A stretch of 55,994 bases of DNA from Candidatus Micrarchaeota archaeon (GCA_021812105.1 JAKAOQ010000001.1:1-55994), one strand, 5' to 3'. Numbered from the stretch's first letter, positions 3,439-42,569 are shown. Numbers and translations: made by a program. Notes: generated by a model not told the origin, from the letters alone.

Positions 3439-4824
3439 TTATATAGGCAGACCATAGTCTGTTCTCTTTCTTTCTTCTATATTTTTCTTTGAAAGTAGCG
3501 TGCTGTATTGGGCGCTGTACAGGTTGTCGAACCTTCTGTACCCTATGCTTCCGAGTATGACCTTGGTTATTATCAGTGTTTTCGACTCTACACCTTTTAT
3601 AGAGCCGAGCAGCCGCTTTTCTGTCTCTATAAGGTCATCTTCCTCGAATACCGGCACTAGGTACACGTTGCTGTCAGGAATAGAAACTCCGCAGGCGTAC
3701 GCGAACCTGTTCACCAGATCTACCTTCTCGTCAACTAGATCTTTGTAGCTGGAATAGACGGTTTTAAGATAAAGGTCGTAATTTTTGATCTCCAGGAGCA
3801 CCATCCCGTTGTACCTTATCGGCACTCTCTGCATGAACATCGTGGGCCTTATGATGATCGTTTGGCCTTTGATCAGCTTTTCAAAGGCGTTCTTGGCGCT
3901 GCCGACAGACAGGCCGTAGATTCTTTCTATCTCGGAGAAGCTTATAGTGCTGTTTTTATTCAGCTCCCTGAGCACCGCGTATTCCCTCAGCATCAGCTCC
4001 GATCCCGACGGCCTTCGCCTCTCCTTCGTCCTGTGCCACACCTTCTCCTTTAGCACGTCGAAGAAGGCGTCCCTTATCGGAATGAATCCGTAGCTCTCGG
4101 CGACTATCGCGGTGTACCAGCTCGCTGGGGTCTCACTGAGGGATTTCACCTTCCTTATCTCGTTTATGATTGCCTGCGCTATGCTTATCTTCTCGGCTAT
4201 GCAGTAGATAACTATATCGTACGGTCCCTTGGTCAGCATAGCCATCTGAACCCTCGGATTTCCCTCCAGCACCTGCTTAAGATCTTCGTAGTCTATCTCC
4301 GCATGCTCGGTCTCGAACTTTACAAATATAAAGAACTTGTAGAAGTCAAGGTTTTGCAGATTTAGATGTAGAGTATACCTGATGTCGAATTCCCCCTCCA
4401 GCCTTCTGATCCTGTACGGCAGGCTGCTCTCGGACAGATCGGCAAGCTTGCTCATGGTGCTGTAAGGCATCCTGGGGTTCATGCTCAAGGCGGTCAGAAT
4501 CGATTTGTCGTGCTCGTCCAGCCCGTAACCCGACCCCTGCTTCTCCTGCTGGCTACTCGCGTTTCCGGTATCATACTGAGGCACGGGCCTTGACAGCGGC
4601 GCCCTGTTTTGCGGCCTGGTCTTGGCCGGTATGAGCAGCCCGTCATCCCTCATCCAGCCCAGATAGTGCGTGACCTTTCTCGACCTGCCGATGTCCGGAT
4701 CGTACCTGCTCGTGGCCTCGAAGACGCAGAACCTCTTGTTGAGGTACTTCAGCTCTATGTAGCCACTGTACGCTGACTTCAGCTCGTTGAACGCGCTTCT
4801 TATCCTTTTGGGGACCTCCCGCAT
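3439..4824 (-). CDS. Tandem Lrp/AsnC-like regulator (two HTH plus RAM-like units) with a ~100-aa N-terminal extension
   Basis: 461 aa. First HTH unit: DKSILTALSMNPRMPYSTMSKLADLSESSLPYRIRRLEGE, followed by a beta-alpha-beta segment. Second unit: EYAVLRELNKNSTISFSEIERIYGLSVGSAKNAFEKL. The N-terminal YIELKYLNKRFCVFEATSRYDPDIGRSRKVTHYLG recalls the N termini of IS1634-type transposases. CTTAAATATAT lies ~25-35 nt upstream. Confidence 0.65.
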   Translation of the reverse strand: MREVPKRIRSAFNELKSAYSGYIELKYLNKRFCVFEATSRYDPDIGRSRKVTHYLGWMRDDGLLIPAKTRPQNRAPLSRPVPQYDTGNASSQQEKQGSGYGLDEHDKSILTALSMNPRMPYSTMSKLADLSESSLPYRIRRLEGEFDIRYTLHLNLQNLDFYKFFIFVKFETEHAEIDYEDLKQVLEGNPRVQMAMLTKGPYDIVIYCIAEKISIAQAIINEIRKVKSLSETPASWYTAIVAESYGFIPIRDAFFDVLKEKVWHRTKERRRPSGSELMLREYAVLRELNKNSTISFSEIERIYGLSVGSAKNAFEKLIKGQTIIIRPTMFMQRVPIRYNGMVLLEIKNYDLYLKTVYSSYKDLVDEKVDLVNRFAYACGVSIPDSNVYLVPVFEEDDLIETEKRLLGSIKGVESKTLIITKVILGSIGYRRFDNLYSAQYSTLLSKKNIEERKRTDYGLPI

Positions 4825-5059
4825 GCTCCCATTTTATAGTAGACAGCCCATATATTTAAGCCTATCTATTTTTAATTTATGATGTTGCCCATTATATGCA
4901 GAGTATTCTGTCACGTAATAGATGGGTATATATTTTGTATTTTTCATTATTTTATATTAAATATGATAGTAATTGTGCTCGATTGTTCTCAGAATTGGCT
5001 GGTTTTTCCTCTCTACTTATATATAAAAGGTAGGCGCAAATACTATCAAGACAAAAGCG

Positions 5060-5398
5060 ATGCGTACTGCGGGCTTGCTCTGTTGTGGGGCAGAAAGGTG
5101 TGTTGAAATGACCGGGGTTGCTAAGAAGCATAATAATTATAAAGGCTATAACTGGGACGGCAGGCTTCACAATTTCTACTTTATAAAGCCAATACCAAAC
5201 GTTGATGCTGATTCTCTTTCTGAAAAACTGCTCGGAATAAAGGGCGTAAAGGAGGTGCACGTTACAGAAGGTGACAGCGGTTTCCTTGTAAGGGCGAAGT
5301 ATTCTGATGGCGCCAAGGATGTTGGTGAGCAGATAGCGAAAAGCATGAACAGCAGGTACAATCTCTCACTAAGCTATTATAGTCTCAACAAAGAGTGA
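5060..5398 (+). CDS. Small stand-alone RAM/ACT-like (ferredoxin-fold) protein, paralog of 39469-39780
   Basis: FYFIKPIPNVDADSLSEKLLGIKGVKEVHVTEGDSGFLVRAKYSDG..IAKSM..YNLSLSYYSL fits the beta-alpha-beta-beta-alpha-beta Lrp/AsnC ligand-binding pattern (..V.ev..vtG.yD..v.v). About 57% identical to the paralog over ~74 aa. Alternative start at ATG 5108. A TATATATAAAAGG box lies ~30 nt upstream of 5060. Confidence 0.7.
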   Translation: MRTAGLLCCGAERCVEMTGVAKKHNNYKGYNWDGRLHNFYFIKPIPNVDADSLSEKLLGIKGVKEVHVTEGDSGFLVRAKYSDGAKDVGEQIAKSMNSRYNLSLSYYSLNKE

Positions 5399-5408
5399 TG
5401 GTGTTTAT

Positions 5409-5549
5409 ATGATTCTGGACGATGATGTGGTTGTTGTTGCGAAGGTCCCCGGAATGGTCTGGGAGATAAAGTACAGGAACGGGGAGAGCGCACAGGTTCA
5501 GGCAGGTAAGAGATCGCTTATTTCCAGAATTTTGGATCTGGTAAGGTAG
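5409..5549 (+). CDS. Conserved microprotein (46 aa), paralog of 39308-39472; not in the ORF track
   Basis: Hand translation: MILDDDVVVVAKVPGMVWEIKYRNGESAQVQAGKRSLISRILDLVR, TAG at 5547-5549. It starts 10 nt after the RAM gene stop. The paralog shares LDDDVVVV..PG.VW with only synonymous codon differences. Confidence 0.65.
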   Translation: MILDDDVVVVAKVPGMVWEIKYRNGESAQVQAGKRSLISRILDLVR

Positions 5550-5583
5550 CCACTCACCGCCTTACCAATTTCACCCCATAAAT

Positions 5584-5605
5584 CCCCACGGGTTTTCTCG
5601 TGGGG
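5584..5605 (+). terminator. Stable hairpin downstream of the microprotein gene (terminator-like or regulatory)
   Basis: CCCCACG(G) and (C)CGTGGGG form 7-9 bp around a TTTT loop, 35 nt after the stop at 5549. Confidence 0.3.
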
Positions 5606-10417: not shown

Positions 10418-10491
10418 GCGACCGTAGTCTAACCTGGTTAGGACTTCGCCCTTCCAAGGCGAAAACCCGGGTTCAAATCCCGGCAGTCGCA
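10418..10491 (+). tRNA. tRNA-Gly, anticodon TCC, no intron
   Basis: Folds as GCGACCG TA GTCT AACCTGGTTA GGAC T TCGCC CTTCCAA GGCGA AAAC CCGGG TTCAAAT CCCGG CAGTCGC A, with one C:A mismatch at 6:67. Confidence 0.85.
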
Positions 10492-10570
10492 CTTACGCTT
10501 AGAACTTCATTATCCTTTCCATTTTATAGGATTAGGTTGATCCGCCTTGTAGTCGTATTATCATTCAATT

Positions 10571-36345: not shown

Positions 36346-36458
36346 AGCCCCGAGAGGGAATTGAACCCTCGACCTTCTGTTTTCTTGTCTTCTTGATTAA
36401 ACTTCTTTCCAAGAAGTTTACTTACAAGACAGACGCTCTACCACTGAGCTACCGGGGC
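36346..36458 (-). tRNA. tRNA-Thr, anticodon TGT, with a 41-nt intron at 37/38
   Basis: Reverse complement folds as GCCCCGG TA GCTC AGTGGTA GAGC G TCTGT CTTGTA[intron]A ACAGA AGGTC GAGGG TTCAATT CCCTC TCGGGGC T. The intron holds a perfect hairpin, AAACTTCTT-GGA-AAGAAGTTT. Confidence 0.9.
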
Positions 36459-38084: not shown

Positions 38085-38180
38085 AGCACTCTGCGTAGAT
38101 ATGCAACGGAAGTTGCTTAAATGTTTACGGGTCAGTCGAAAACCGTGGTTGATGGAATTGTGCGTTTTGCCTTAATAGGA

Positions 38181-38208
38181 ATATTTAAATATCTTTATCC
38201 CTTTATCC
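38181..38208 (+). promoter_or_regulatory. mntA-hepT promoter: TATA box plus a tandem 8-bp direct repeat (candidate RHH operator)
   Basis: ATATTTAAATAT (38181-38192) is followed immediately by CTTTATCC CTTTATCC (38193-38208), ending 5 nt before ATG 38214. Confidence 0.45.
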
Positions 38209-38213
38209 CTATT

Positions 38214-38726
38214 ATGGAAACAAAGATATACGTTTCCGACGATGTCGGCGCGAGATGGAAGGAGCTCGCGATGAAAAGATTCGGCTATGGAAGAGGGTCC
38301 ATAAGCAGGGCCGCCGAAGAGGCGCTCGCGCTTTGGATAGGCGCTGAAGAGAGGATAGAACGCATTCTCGGCGAATTCGTTTCGGCCGCGAAAAACGACG
38401 CACGTGTCTCCGCGCTGCTCCTCTTTGGAAGCTACGCGAGGAAAGAGAGGTACAACGACATAGACGTAGCGGTCGTGGTCGGAGACGGAGTAGGCAGCAG
38501 GGAACGCCTTGCCGTAGTCACCGAGTTCGAGAAGAGGGTGCCTGAAGGAGTAAGGGTAGACATAAGCGTATTCAATTCGCTAGGTGTGGATGTAAAGTCT
38601 AGTATACTGTCAGAGGGAATTGTGTTGTACTCCAAGGACAGGAGCGTTGTTTATGACCTCTCTTCTGAAGTGATAAAACAGAATTCTGACTTCGGTGTTG
38701 GATTGCGCTCTGTTTTGGGTGTGTAG
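38214..38726 (+). CDS. mntA: Minimal nucleotidyltransferase (MNT) antitoxin with an N-terminal ribbon-helix-helix domain
   Basis: LLLFGSYARKERYNDIDVAVVV is the GS...DxD Pol-beta nucleotidyltransferase motif. The N-terminal METKIYVSDDVGARWKELAMKRF...ISRAAEEALALWI is CopG/RHH-like. The stop abuts the hepT ATG. Confidence 0.8.
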   Translation: METKIYVSDDVGARWKELAMKRFGYGRGSISRAAEEALALWIGAEERIERILGEFVSAAKNDARVSALLLFGSYARKERYNDIDVAVVVGDGVGSRERLAVVTEFEKRVPEGVRVDISVFNSLGVDVKSSILSEGIVLYSKDRSVVYDLSSEVIKQNSDFGVGLRSVLGV

Positions 38727-39152
38727 ATGCTTGACAGGGGGAGGATAGCAAAAAGGCTGCTGGATCTGGAGAGGTACTCGTCCAGGCTGGAGAAGATAGC
38801 CCCAGCCAGCTTTGAGAAGTATATGGAAGCGGGCCATGAGCTGAAGGCCGCGGTGGAAAGATATCTCCAGCTGATAAGTGATATAGAACTGGATATATCA
38901 CTGCTGGTCTACAAGGGCATGGAGCTCTCGCTCGCCGGAGACGAGACGAGTCTGCTTGAAAGGCTGCAGGGAGTGCTCGGCAAGAAAGTAATAGAGGAGG
39001 TGAGACCCAGAAGGACGCTGAGGAACAAACTGGTCCATGCATATTCGGACGAATCCTACGATGAAGACGCCTTCGCACAGGCGCATGATTTGAGGGATAT
39101 AGTGGAATTTGAGAAGGCAGTTAAAAGGCAGCTCGGAAAGAAGAGGGCGTGA
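38727..39152 (+). CDS. hepT: HEPN-domain (DUF86) toxin
   Basis: 141 aa with RNKLVHAY, the R-x4-H HEPN motif, at nt 39021-39038. Confidence 0.8.
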   Translation: MLDRGRIAKRLLDLERYSSRLEKIAPASFEKYMEAGHELKAAVERYLQLISDIELDISLLVYKGMELSLAGDETSLLERLQGVLGKKVIEEVRPRRTLRNKLVHAYSDESYDEDAFAQAHDLRDIVEFEKAVKRQLGKKRA

Positions 39153-39266
39153 CGACTTCACAAAAGTGCCCCTAAACCATTGACACCTTGACCAAGTCGC
39201 AGTAATGATGGACAGGCACGCTCGATTGGGTAAAAGAATGTTGATTTTGTATGCCAGATGGGGAGA

Positions 39267-39284
39267 CCTGCGTGAAAGCGCAGG
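39267..39284 (-). terminator. Hairpin downstream of the second microprotein gene
   Basis: CCTGCG-TGAAAG-CGCAGG, ~25 nt after the stop at 39308. It occupies the same position as the hairpin at 5584-5605 in the first copy. Confidence 0.3.
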
Positions 39285-39307
39285 CCCGGATTAGAATGTT
39301 GGGATAA

Positions 39308-39472
39308 TTAGCGTATTATGGGAGATGTAGACCTGAACCTGCCGACAATCTTGGAGAACAAACCTGTTTTCCTTGTCGTTTCTTGCGGTATATCCTCGTC
39401 CTTTAACCTTAGATCCCAGACGAAACCCGGAATCCTTTCTACCACAACAACGTCGTCGTCGAGTTTCGTCAT
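39308..39472 (-). CDS. Conserved microprotein (54 aa), paralog of 5409-5549; not in the ORF track
   Basis: Hand translation: MTKLDDDVVVVERIPGFVWDLRLKDEDIPQETTRKTGLFSKIVGRFRSTSPIIR. Its ATG (39472-39470) overlaps the TGA of the RAM gene (39471-39469) in an ATGA arrangement. Confidence 0.65.
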   Translation of the reverse strand: MTKLDDDVVVVERIPGFVWDLRLKDEDIPQETTRKTGLFSKIVGRFRSTSPIIR

Positions 39473-39780
39473 GCCCTCACCTTCCTAAGATTGTAATAAC
39501 TCAGTGCAACGCCGTACTTGCCCTTCATGTTCTTCGCGATATACTCGCCTATCGAGTCGTCCTCGCCGGTGTACTTAGCCTTGACTACATAACCGTATTC
39601 GCCCTCGGTTATGTCGACTTCCCCTATGGCCTTTATGCCGAGCAGCCTCTCGGAAAGAGATTTGGCGTCCGTATTCGGTATAGGCTTTATGAAAAAGAAC
39701 TTATGCGGCTTCGCGCACATAACGCCTCTTTTGATTTTTGATACCTGCGTTGTTCCACCCACCAACCCACCATTATACAT
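39469..39780 (-). CDS. Small stand-alone RAM/ACT-like protein, paralog of 5060-5398
   Basis: FFFIKPIPNTDAKSLSERLLGIKAIGEVDITEGEYGYVVKAKYTGEDDSIGEYIAKNMKGKYGVALSYYNL. Alternative start at M21 (39720). A TATATAAA box lies just upstream of 39780. Confidence 0.7.
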   Translation of the reverse strand: MYNGGLVGGTTQVSKIKRGVMCAKPHKFFFIKPIPNTDAKSLSERLLGIKAIGEVDITEGEYGYVVKAKYTGEDDSIGEYIAKNMKGKYGVALSYYNLRKVRA

Positions 39781-39902
39781 TGTATCGCATTTGATTTATA
39801 TACCTTTTACTTTTTCTAAAATTTGATATGATTTTTTCGGATTATGGAAAGTATACTGGAAGGGAGTATAGGTCTTAAATTACTTTGTAATGAATAAATT
39901 AT

Positions 39903-40904
39903 ATGCAATTCAATAAGCTCCACAGGACCCTATTACAGGGACTCTGTTTGAACTCTAGAACGAGGACCCCCGAGCTCTCCAGGAAAATAGGTATTTCAAG
40001 GTACAAGATTACGAATTTGATAAAAGAAGTAGAAAAAGAGTTGGGGCTTAGCTACACCCTAGAGTTAGATTATAAAAAATTGGGTTTTGGGGCTTTACAT
40101 TTAACTTATCTGAATTTTGAGAAAAAACCAAGTTTGAAATCAATATCCGATGTACTAAATAAAATTCCATCAATACAGTTGGCATTGGCCACAAATGGAG
40201 ATTTTGAACTTCTCTGTTTCACAGTAACCAAGACTGCCATTGAATATTCCCAGGTAGAGGTCGCTATGCAGATTTTATTTGAAAGATACGGCACAATGGT
40301 ACACTCCAGCGAGATAACACTGATGCGACACGGGTTCGTGCCTCTCAGCAATGCGCTTATAGGCCAGTCCGCGATAGAAGGGAGCTATAAGAGCCTGCTG
40401 CCCGTTCTTAACACAAACTCAAGAATGAAAATCAGGGAGATAAGTAAAAGGATAAATATGAGTGAGGATCTTGTCCGATACTATATGATAAAGATGAAAA
40501 AAGAGCGTATAATAAGGAGGTACACCACCATAGTGACAAAACCGAACACAAAATTTACGATTGCATACTTTTCAAGCTACTCTGTGAGAGAGAATATTCG
40601 ATCGAGAATAGATAAAGAGAGGAACGAAATTATTTTCCGCAACGATGAGGTGAGTTATGTGAACAATTTCCAAATGATGTTTTCCATAACTGGTAGTGGG
40701 CAGGCATTCAATCTCGCGGCTTTTCCTAACAGGAAGTATGGATTAGAGCACAGCATAAATGCGCACAACGCAATATATGCACCCGAAAAGCCCGAGGTAA
40801 AGAAGGCCGTCATAATAAAGGTGGTAAAAGGTATACTGCCTCTTAGGAATATCGATGTGAAGGCAAATTATGACTACACGAACTGGCCAACAGAATTCTC
40901 CTGA
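39903..40904 (+). CDS. Tandem Lrp/AsnC-like regulator (two HTH plus RAM-like units)
   Basis: 333 aa. HTH units: LLQGLCLNSRTRTPELSRKIGISRYKITNLIKEVEKE and LLPVLNTNSRMKIREISKRINMSEDLVRYYMIKMKKE. CTTAAATTAC lies ~25-30 nt upstream. Same architecture as 3439-4824 without the N-terminal extension. Confidence 0.65.
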   Translation: MQFNKLHRTLLQGLCLNSRTRTPELSRKIGISRYKITNLIKEVEKELGLSYTLELDYKKLGFGALHLTYLNFEKKPSLKSISDVLNKIPSIQLALATNGDFELLCFTVTKTAIEYSQVEVAMQILFERYGTMVHSSEITLMRHGFVPLSNALIGQSAIEGSYKSLLPVLNTNSRMKIREISKRINMSEDLVRYYMIKMKKERIIRRYTTIVTKPNTKFTIAYFSSYSVRENIRSRIDKERNEIIFRNDEVSYVNNFQMMFSITGSGQAFNLAAFPNRKYGLEHSINAHNAIYAPEKPEVKKAVIIKVVKGILPLRNIDVKANYDYTNWPTEFS

Positions 40905-42416: not shown

Positions 42417-42569
42417 ATGGGAAGGTCTCCTTTAGCCGACGCTGAACTGTCGAAGATATGGATCTGCAAGAAGTGCAAGGCCAGAAACAGAGCGGGGAGC
42501 ACCAAGTGCAGGAGGTGCGGCTATCCCGCGCTGAGACCCAAGAGGAAGGACGTAAAGGCGAAGAAGTAG
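42417..42569 (+). CDS. rpl40e: Ribosomal protein L40e (50 aa); not in the ORF track
   Basis: Hand translation: MGRSPLADAELSKIWICKKCKARNRAGSTKCRRCGYPALRPKRKDVKAKK. This is the characteristic CxxC...CxxC L40e zinc ribbon with a basic tail. Confidence 0.85.
   Translation: MGRSPLADAELSKIWICKKCKARNRAGSTKCRRCGYPALRPKRKDVKAKK

Follow-up and report, generated by a model that had tools for sequence, protein, structure and literature searches.

The window analysed here is a stretch of 55,994 nucleotides from a Candidatus Micrarchaeota archaeon (GCA_021812105.1, JAKAOQ010000001.1:1-55994), and it carries two short ORFs that encode related microproteins. Copy 1 lies on the plus strand (5409..5549) and encodes 46 aa (MILDDDVVVVAKVPGMVWEIKYRNGESAQVQAGKRSLISRILDLVR); copy 2, its paralogue, lies on the minus strand (39308..39472) and encodes 54 aa (MTKLDDDVVVVERIPGFVWDLRLKDEDIPQETTRKTGLFSKIVGRFRSTSPIIR). 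In copy 2, an acidic beta-hairpin motif (LDDDVVVVxxIPGxVW) makes up the N-terminus, and a variable linker connects it to a C-terminal segment that is both basic and hydrophobic (GLFSKIVGRFR). The two microproteins align without gaps and share 18 of 44 aligned residues (41%), in agreement with an earlier note on this DNA that had proposed a pair of ORFs with about 18 common positions. In tblastn searches of the whole window in six frames, each microprotein found the other copy, at E 5e-9 and 7e-9; as the next-best match in the window was at E 0.07, this likeness is far above chance. The earlier note had also compared the twelve codons for LDDDVVVV, PG and VW and counted eight nucleotide differences among them; when the sequence was re-read, all eight were synonymous and all fell at third positions.

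Each microprotein ORF directly follows a gene for a stand-alone domain that resembles the RAM domain of Lrp/AsnC regulators, and these two genes are called RAM-like below. The RAM-like gene of copy 1 occupies 5060..5398 on the plus strand, with a possible internal start at 5108, and that of copy 2 occupies 39469..39780 on the minus strand, with a possible internal start at 39720. The junctions are as they had been described: the start of copy 2 overlaps the upstream stop in an ATGA, and copy 1 starts 10 nt past the upstream TGA, after a spacer that contains GGTG (5399..5408, plus strand). An SD-like sequence, AGGAAGGTGAGGG, whose motif was compared across 11 loci, is present 5' of the copy-2 start (39473..39486, minus strand).

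The expectation that both ORFs would be missed by gene callers did not hold: public gene calls include the exact sequence of both proteins, on 28 contigs for the 54-aa protein and on 4 for the 46-aa protein. A protein look-up placed the copy-2 cassette on contig DAHWYJ010000027.1 of assembly GCA_027354265.1. Close relatives of the microproteins are named only 'hypothetical protein' in public collections; the microprotein genes are uncharacterised, not undetected. Another small ORF of the window (42417-42569, plus strand) encodes a 50-aa zinc-ribbon protein (…KIWICKKCKARNRAGSTKCRRCGYPALRPKRK…) for which the public gene calls gave only a weak RanBP zinc-ribbon match, and which presumably resembles archaeal ribosomal protein L40e. 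Among the tRNAs of the window, only tRNA-Gly(TCC) at 10418-10492 was found by both Rfam and ARAGORN. Two others were found by Rfam and not reported by ARAGORN (654-769, 116 nt, and 36346-36458, 113 nt, both on the minus strand); these are presumably intron-containing archaeal tRNAs.

Relatives of the cassette were sought from both of its small genes. A profile of the RAM-like gene, run without bias against one genome for each species, led to three loci, L007, L008 and L009, and in all three a homologous microprotein ORF lies immediately 3' of the RAM-like gene. Microprotein queries, used in a word-index search and in an exhaustive HMMER search, gave further homologues, and the loci found in this way all have a RAM-like gene upstream. 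Two more homologues of the upstream gene, P0004 and P0006 (L024 and L025), have a microprotein start directly downstream; one of these microprotein copies is cut by the contig end and the other carries a TAA at codon 31. Altogether, 11 distinct loci were found, in MAGs labelled Micrarchaeota or Nanoarchaeota and in metagenome contigs, and in all 11 the homologous ORF begins between 4 nt before and 24 nt after the RAM-like stop. Orthologues of copy 2, with 94-30% identity, are found at the corresponding position in L007, L010, L013 and others; the orthologues of copy 1, which are P0012 and P0015 (L016) and the L008 protein, are placed likewise. The search for relatives that the earlier note had suggested therefore yielded a homologous ORF directly 3' of the RAM-like gene in every relative found.

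The exhaustive HMMER search returned 11 hits at E <= 1e-3 among 1.84 billion representatives clustered at 50% identity. Nine of these hits are true and correspond to proteins of 38-123 aa, all matched from residue 1; the microprotein motif was not found inside any larger protein among these representatives. The candidates P0016 (1822 aa) and P0017 (1290 aa) were rejected as homologues: they are repeat proteins in which 16-18 short repeats (e.g. 'IGKIVGMFKR' and 'ARIPGHMWD') were summed to reach E 1e-14 to 1e-25 against the 51-position microprotein profile. Summed scores from short profiles can thus mislead. No relatives were found in a subset of JGI metagenome contigs, either with the RAM-like profile or with the microprotein profile, and none in the IMG/VR viral contigs (one profile scan). 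Against Pfam, NCBIfam, PADLOC and the PDB sequences, the microprotein had no match below E 0.03, and its matches to APS-reductase_C (E 0.033) and mL45 (E 0.54) were set aside as short chance matches. As far as these searches reach, the microprotein family is very narrow and lineage-restricted, in Micrarchaeota/DPANN-type archaea.

The dN/dS of the window pair, a check that had been proposed for the two copies, was calculated by the Nei-Gojobori method; omega was about 0.22, with a pN of 0.33 and a pS that is saturated at 0.70. The 18 N-terminal codons of the pair differ 2, 3 and 12 times at first, second and third codon positions, with a pN/pS of 0.17, and the remainder of the microprotein is far less constrained (pN/pS 0.77 for the same pair). 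When all pairs of the 11 loci were compared over the N-terminal part, the mean pN was 0.24 versus a mean pS of 0.72, and the mean pN/pS was 0.33. Across the ORF, the minimum numbers of changes by codon position were 43, 43 and 79 in eight loci. The microprotein ORF is intact in 10 of the 11 distinct loci with complete sequence, and its frame is open where the other five frames are interrupted by stops across the 11 distinct loci. Indels in the linker are multiples of three, and the frame is kept. On one further contig (L024, 1144-1310), an in-frame TAA replaces the GAA that relatives have at codon 31, and the conserved C-terminal sequence AAQKPGIFSRILGMFK goes on past this TAA with the frame unchanged; the stop may have arisen by a recent nonsense mutation, may be a sequencing error, or may mark a truncation that is tolerated.

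The microprotein might be the detached C-terminus of a longer RAM-like protein, separated from it by a frameshift, whether programmed or due to assembly, or by a recent split, and the ATGA stop-start overlap, present in five loci, would agree with such an origin. However, the distance from the RAM-like stop to the microprotein ATG is -4, +4, +10, +14 or +24 nt depending on the locus, and as the spacing varies so does the frame relative to the RAM-like gene, which may be either +1 or -1. The microprotein has its own ATG at every locus and an SD, of GGTGA type, at most of them: SD-like AGGTGA(T) stands at -10..-4 in 6 of the 11 distinct loci, and is partial in most others. Furthermore, the identical sequence recurs in dozens of independent assemblies, and the exhaustive search, in which all true hits start at residue 1, gave no fused homologue. 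We therefore regard a detached C-terminus as highly improbable. To judge by the junctions, the microprotein is translationally coupled to the RAM-like gene, by the ATGA overlap or by the SD.

The sequences that border the two-gene units were inspected for transcription signals. A TATA-box-like sequence, CTTATATATAAAAGG, was seen about 30 nt before the copy-1 RAM-like ORF (5016..5030, plus strand), and is a candidate for the archaeal promoter of a bicistronic unit; a similar sequence, GGTATATAAATC, was seen before the copy-2 RAM-like ORF (39793..39804, minus strand). At the other end of the copy-1 unit, a predicted hairpin (5538..5568, plus strand) is formed by a 5' arm, CTGGTAAGGTAG, which comprises the last microprotein codons and the stop, and a 3' arm, GCCTTACCAA. 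It is kept in L008 and L016 and retained in L013 with compensatory changes: in L013 both arms are altered, from AAGG/CCTT to AAGAG/CTCTT, and the microprotein ORF reads through to 68 aa. This hairpin probably marks the 3' end of the RAM-micro transcript or acts as its terminator. The 5' arm takes in the last three codons and the stop, and so the C-terminal 'LVR' conserved in copy-1-type microproteins may have been selected in part at the RNA level. A second, G+C-rich hairpin, CCCCACGGG-TTTT-CTCGTGGGG, lies 3' of copy 1 (5584..5605, plus strand; fold z -1.9), and a similar second hairpin is present in L016. Copy 2 is followed by a near-invariant 3' UTR (TAATTATCCCAACAYTCTAA) and then by a hairpin, GGCCTGCG-loop-CGCAGG (39265..39310, minus strand; five-locus alignment, fold z -2.7), and 39265-39310 is a conserved 3' UTR element. 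TATA-like boxes before the RAM-like ORFs and hairpins after the microprotein ORFs fit a bicistronic transcript. Regarding the copy-2 type, 22 nt past the microprotein stop (TAATTATCCCAACAYTCTAAYC) are nearly invariant in the window, L007, L010, L012 and L024, and are kept though the microprotein genes of the same loci are saturated at synonymous sites; the GGCCTGCG/CGCAGGCC hairpin comes next.

These conserved 3'-end hairpins, and in particular the copy-1-type hairpin with its compensation in L013, raise the question whether the conservation of the microprotein ORFs is itself that of a non-coding RNA or of a 3' UTR element of the RAM-like mRNA. The distribution of changes argues against this, as they are concentrated at third positions, both across the eight loci and, for the window pair, over its N-terminal part; the frame also survives the linker indels. 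In addition, the two coding regions showed no unusual RNA fold compared with shuffled sequences (z of the MFE -0.47 and -1.93), copy 1 and copy 2 had no common RNA fold, and Rfam gave no match at the microprotein ORFs. Conservation that tracks an RNA structure and breaks the frame, which the earlier note had named as the contrary outcome, was looked for, and conservation was found to follow the reading frame instead. An RNA element is accordingly a very improbable explanation of the ORFs. Given the open frame, the shifting frame relation, the ordinary folds and the lack of an Rfam match, both the RNA element and the frameshifted extension were rejected. The original description of the sequence as translated, constrained and not a UTR thus finds support in the third-position excess, the intact frame, the varying junctions and the ordinary RNA fold, and we consider it almost certain that the two ORFs are real, translated protein-coding genes. 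This also indicates that sequence alone can be enough to validate a gene of 46-54 aa, provided that a diverged paralogue is available on the same contig.

The RAM-like genes encode about 85-110 aa across loci, with a core of about 80 residues, and copy 1 and copy 2 are 55% identical over 78 aa. The AF2 model of the RAM-like protein has a ferredoxin-like beta-alpha-beta-beta-alpha-beta fold (E24-31, H39-47, E52-59, E63-70, H77-89 and E95-97), and this topology recurred, at pLDDT 80-89, in a model of an artificial fusion with the microprotein. No HTH was found in the RAM-like protein by the Pfam search. The copy-1 protein matched Pfam AsnC_trans_reg at E 0.0042; among ten diverse members, six matched PF01037, with a best E of 6.8e-4, and all were below the 25-bit gathering score. 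In the PDB, a profile of these ten members found the Pyrococcus stand-alone RAM protein DM1 (2e1a/2z4p) at E 9.4e-4 and 22.4 bits. The top 20 Foldseek matches of the RAM-like model, none of them better than E 6.6e-3, include the Lrp/AsnC structures 2znz, 2cyy, 2qz8, 1ri7 and 2cvi, and S6 permutants, RRMs and SSo6206 have equally good scores. Compared profile to profile with the adjacent regulators, the RAM-like family aligned to their RAM regions, with E values that are not significant (0.05 and 0.13). Taken together, the sequence profiles and the model make a divergent stand-alone RAM domain probable, and only probable, because the PF01037 scores are below threshold and because S6 and RRM folds appear alongside Lrp/AsnC.

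On the other side of each RAM-like gene lies a gene for a tandem Lrp/AsnC-type regulator. That of cassette 2 (39903..40904, plus strand) encodes 333 aa with two wHTH+RAM units; it matches Pfam HTH_24 and HTH_AsnC, and both halves match NCBIfam Lrp, LrpA, AsnC and LysM. That of cassette 1 (3439..4824, minus strand) encodes 461 aa and matches HTH_AsnC (2e-10), AsnC_trans_reg (4e-4) and NCBIfam LysM (1e-14). The 461-aa and 333-aa regulators are paralogues (E 3e-9), and both are transcribed divergently from their RAM-like/microprotein unit, across intergenic regions of 235 nt (4825-5059) and 122 nt (39781-39902). An identity of the tandem regulator with AhbA/B (NirDL-like siroheme decarboxylase) was rejected, as its E values of 0.002-0.03 were far poorer than those of the Lrp/AsnC matches. 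The 461-aa regulator has an N-terminal extension of about 100 aa (…YIELKYLNKRFCVFEATSRYDP…KVTHYLGW…), which is present in the orthologues of 441-462 aa and missing from the 333-aa copy.

L008, L010, L013, L016, L019 and L021 each have a regulator orthologue of 441-462 aa at the corresponding place. In all, a divergent tandem Lrp regulator is present in nine of the ten loci with readable upstream sequence, the sole exception being L023, which has no Lrp regulator upstream. The outer flanks differ among loci and consist of AlaRS, proteasome, IleRS, ScpAB or ribosomal genes. In two divergent lineages, L019 (1523-1783) and L023 (3170-3511), an extra ORF precedes the RAM-like gene, with the common C-terminus (A)WDIKVFL..FPL; no counterpart of this ORF was found in the window. 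Pairwise distances of the RAM-like proteins and of the microproteins are correlated (Mantel r 0.47; 101 of 5000 permutations gave a value as high). Of the two proteins, the microprotein changes far more quickly: copy 2 of the window (win_c2) and L008 differ by 57% in the microprotein versus 19% in the RAM-like protein. Gene order and sequence comparison indicate that the RAM-like gene, the microprotein gene and the tandem Lrp gene form a three-gene cassette, which is duplicated and co-diverged in the genome of the window.

Convergent with microprotein copy 2, the window also encodes an MNT-type nucleotidyltransferase (Polbeta/NTP_transf_2; 38121-38726, plus strand) followed by a HepT-like HEPN ribonuclease (38727-39152, plus strand), which form a typical MNT-HEPN toxin-antitoxin pair.

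The RAM-like protein and the microprotein might themselves constitute a small mobile toxin-antitoxin or addiction module, with the microprotein as either toxin or antitoxin. Their genes are small and translationally coupled, each genome has two copies, the neighbouring genes differ from one genome to the next, and the HepT/MNT pair adjoins copy 2. Nevertheless, neither of them matches a toxin or antitoxin family of PADLOC, Pfam or NCBIfam, the microprotein has no hydrophobic stretch of transmembrane length, and there are no relatives in the viral contigs searched. The consistent link to a dedicated Lrp-type regulator, and components that diverge in step, like vertically inherited paralogues, are also at odds with such a module, which we consider improbable.

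The anatomy of the microprotein was read from the 11-locus alignment plus P0019-P0023. The N-terminal part follows the pattern M(T)K-L-D-[DE]-D-V-x-x-V-x-x-[VI]-P-G-x-[VI]-W-[DE]-[IL]-[KR], in which the Trp is invariant, the P-G pair is almost so, and the first strand is acidic. A variable, indel-rich linker connects it to the C-terminal segment, which is basic-hydrophobic, [KR][KR]x[GS]L[FI][ST][KR][IL][LV]..., and almost every member has it at the C-terminus or close to it. In the AF2 model of the artificial RAM-micro fusion, the microprotein N-terminus forms two beta-strands at pLDDT 54-67; the whole microprotein part ranges from 28 to 67, and the C-terminal segment is below 50, with no confident helix. 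This model was built on a two-row alignment of the window sequences and carries no usable interface information. As a Foldseek query, the artificial fusion had no significant neighbour, the best being eL22 at E 0.03. The P0020 homologue is only 38 aa long, and given this protein and the stop in L024, the C-terminal segment may be dispensable. These natural truncations suggest that the N-terminal hairpin is the core of the microprotein.

The C-terminal segment nevertheless leads to a further alternative, namely that the microprotein gene is real and its product acts independently of the RAM-like protein, with which it would merely be co-expressed, the tail being a membrane-targeting or nucleic-acid-binding element that localises or sequesters something else. 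The basic-hydrophobic pattern is conserved in nearly all members, and the microprotein diverges faster than the RAM-like protein. The muH of the segment, 0.33-0.91, overlaps the values computed for the C-terminal sequences of MinD and FtsA; however, it is not distinguishable from that of shuffled sequences (z -2.2 to +2.4), and AF2 gave no confident helix. Independent action is also opposed by the N-terminal hairpin, which is under stronger constraint than the tail, and by the truncated variants that have no tail. Finally, strict adjacency in all loci, with ATGA or SD coupling, is more typical of the partners of a complex. We consider this alternative unlikely, although a good deal less so than a toxin-antitoxin module, and both are less well supported than a role of the microprotein as an accessory subunit.

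In conclusion, comparison across the 11 loci and the exhaustive search indicate that the microprotein is conserved as a protein, occurs only in free-standing form and is strictly linked to the RAM-like gene, and it is probably an uncharacterised partner subunit of an Lrp-type regulatory module. More specifically, the tight coupling, the exclusive linkage and the constrained hairpin encoded beside a sheet-oligomerising domain led us to propose that the microprotein joins the RAM-like protein as a stoichiometric accessory subunit, a reading to which we give an even chance. We read the microprotein gene as the second cistron of a two-gene operon, ordered as a candidate TATA box, the RAM-like gene, the SD-coupled microprotein gene and a 3' hairpin. 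This operon usually lies divergent from the adjoining tandem Lrp/AsnC regulator, with two diverged copies of the cassette in the genome of the window. The N-terminal beta-hairpin of the microprotein, with its acidic strand, PG turn and invariant Trp, would dock on the RAM beta-sheet, and a second contact, to the regulator, DNA or the membrane, could come from the basic-hydrophobic C-terminal segment.

The stand-alone RAM protein DM1 and the full-length Lrp protein FL11 have been reported to form hetero-octamers, and the physiological role of stand-alone RAM proteins has been described as unclear (review PMC2995911). By analogy with the DM1/FL11 hetero-octamers, the RAM-like/microprotein pair plausibly modulates the neighbouring tandem regulator, whose assembly state or ligand response it would tune. 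It is conceivable, if doubtful, that the microprotein is an obligate third part of a new Lrp-type switch, in which the hairpin would cap or bridge RAM sheets and the RAM/tandem-Lrp assembly would be tethered or sequestered through the tail, for instance at the membrane or on DNA. If this were true, genome-reduced DPANN archaea would have a three-part ligand-responsive regulator without a described counterpart, and it would offer a first physiological handle on the reason why stand-alone RAM proteins exist. A dedicated, strictly co-encoded microprotein partner would be a concrete and testable lead, and the present results add to the annotation of DPANN genomes a well-supported family of uncharacterised small proteins, together with a regulatory cassette of three genes. 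The general impact is modest, as the family is small and lineage-restricted.

Compared with known systems, the microprotein may be likened to the membrane-targeting tails of MinD and FtsA, a comparison that serves as a lead only, in having a short basic-hydrophobic segment at its extreme C-terminus. Unlike these tails, to which it is not homologous, its segment has no significant amphipathicity and no confident AF2 helix, and is missing from the truncated variants. A more general precedent is provided by archaeal mu-proteins of less than 70 aa, for example HVO_0758 and the 282 mu-proteins of Haloferax volcanii (PMC10716476). The microprotein is like them in being short, free-standing, conserved and operon-encoded, and unlike them in having no zinc finger or other known motif and in being confined to a few DPANN lineages. 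Among the literature searched, including the review PMC2995911, no microprotein partner of stand-alone RAM/Lrp systems was found. The closest comparison is with the stand-alone RAM (demi-FFRP) systems, such as DM1/FL11 of Pyrococcus and STS042 of Sulfolobus tokodaii, which share with the present cassette a domain of about 80 residues with beta-alpha-beta-beta-alpha-beta topology and no HTH; DM1 is the best PDB sequence match of the RAM-like gene, and here an Lrp/AsnC regulator adjoins that gene. In contrast with the demi-FFRP systems, the RAM-like domain described here is very divergent and does not reach the gathering score of Pfam, two Lrp units are covalently joined in tandem in the regulator, and a third gene, of 38-68 aa, is obligatorily linked to the other two. 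An Lrp regulator paired with a stand-alone RAM protein is known already; what this cassette adds is the microprotein as a third component.
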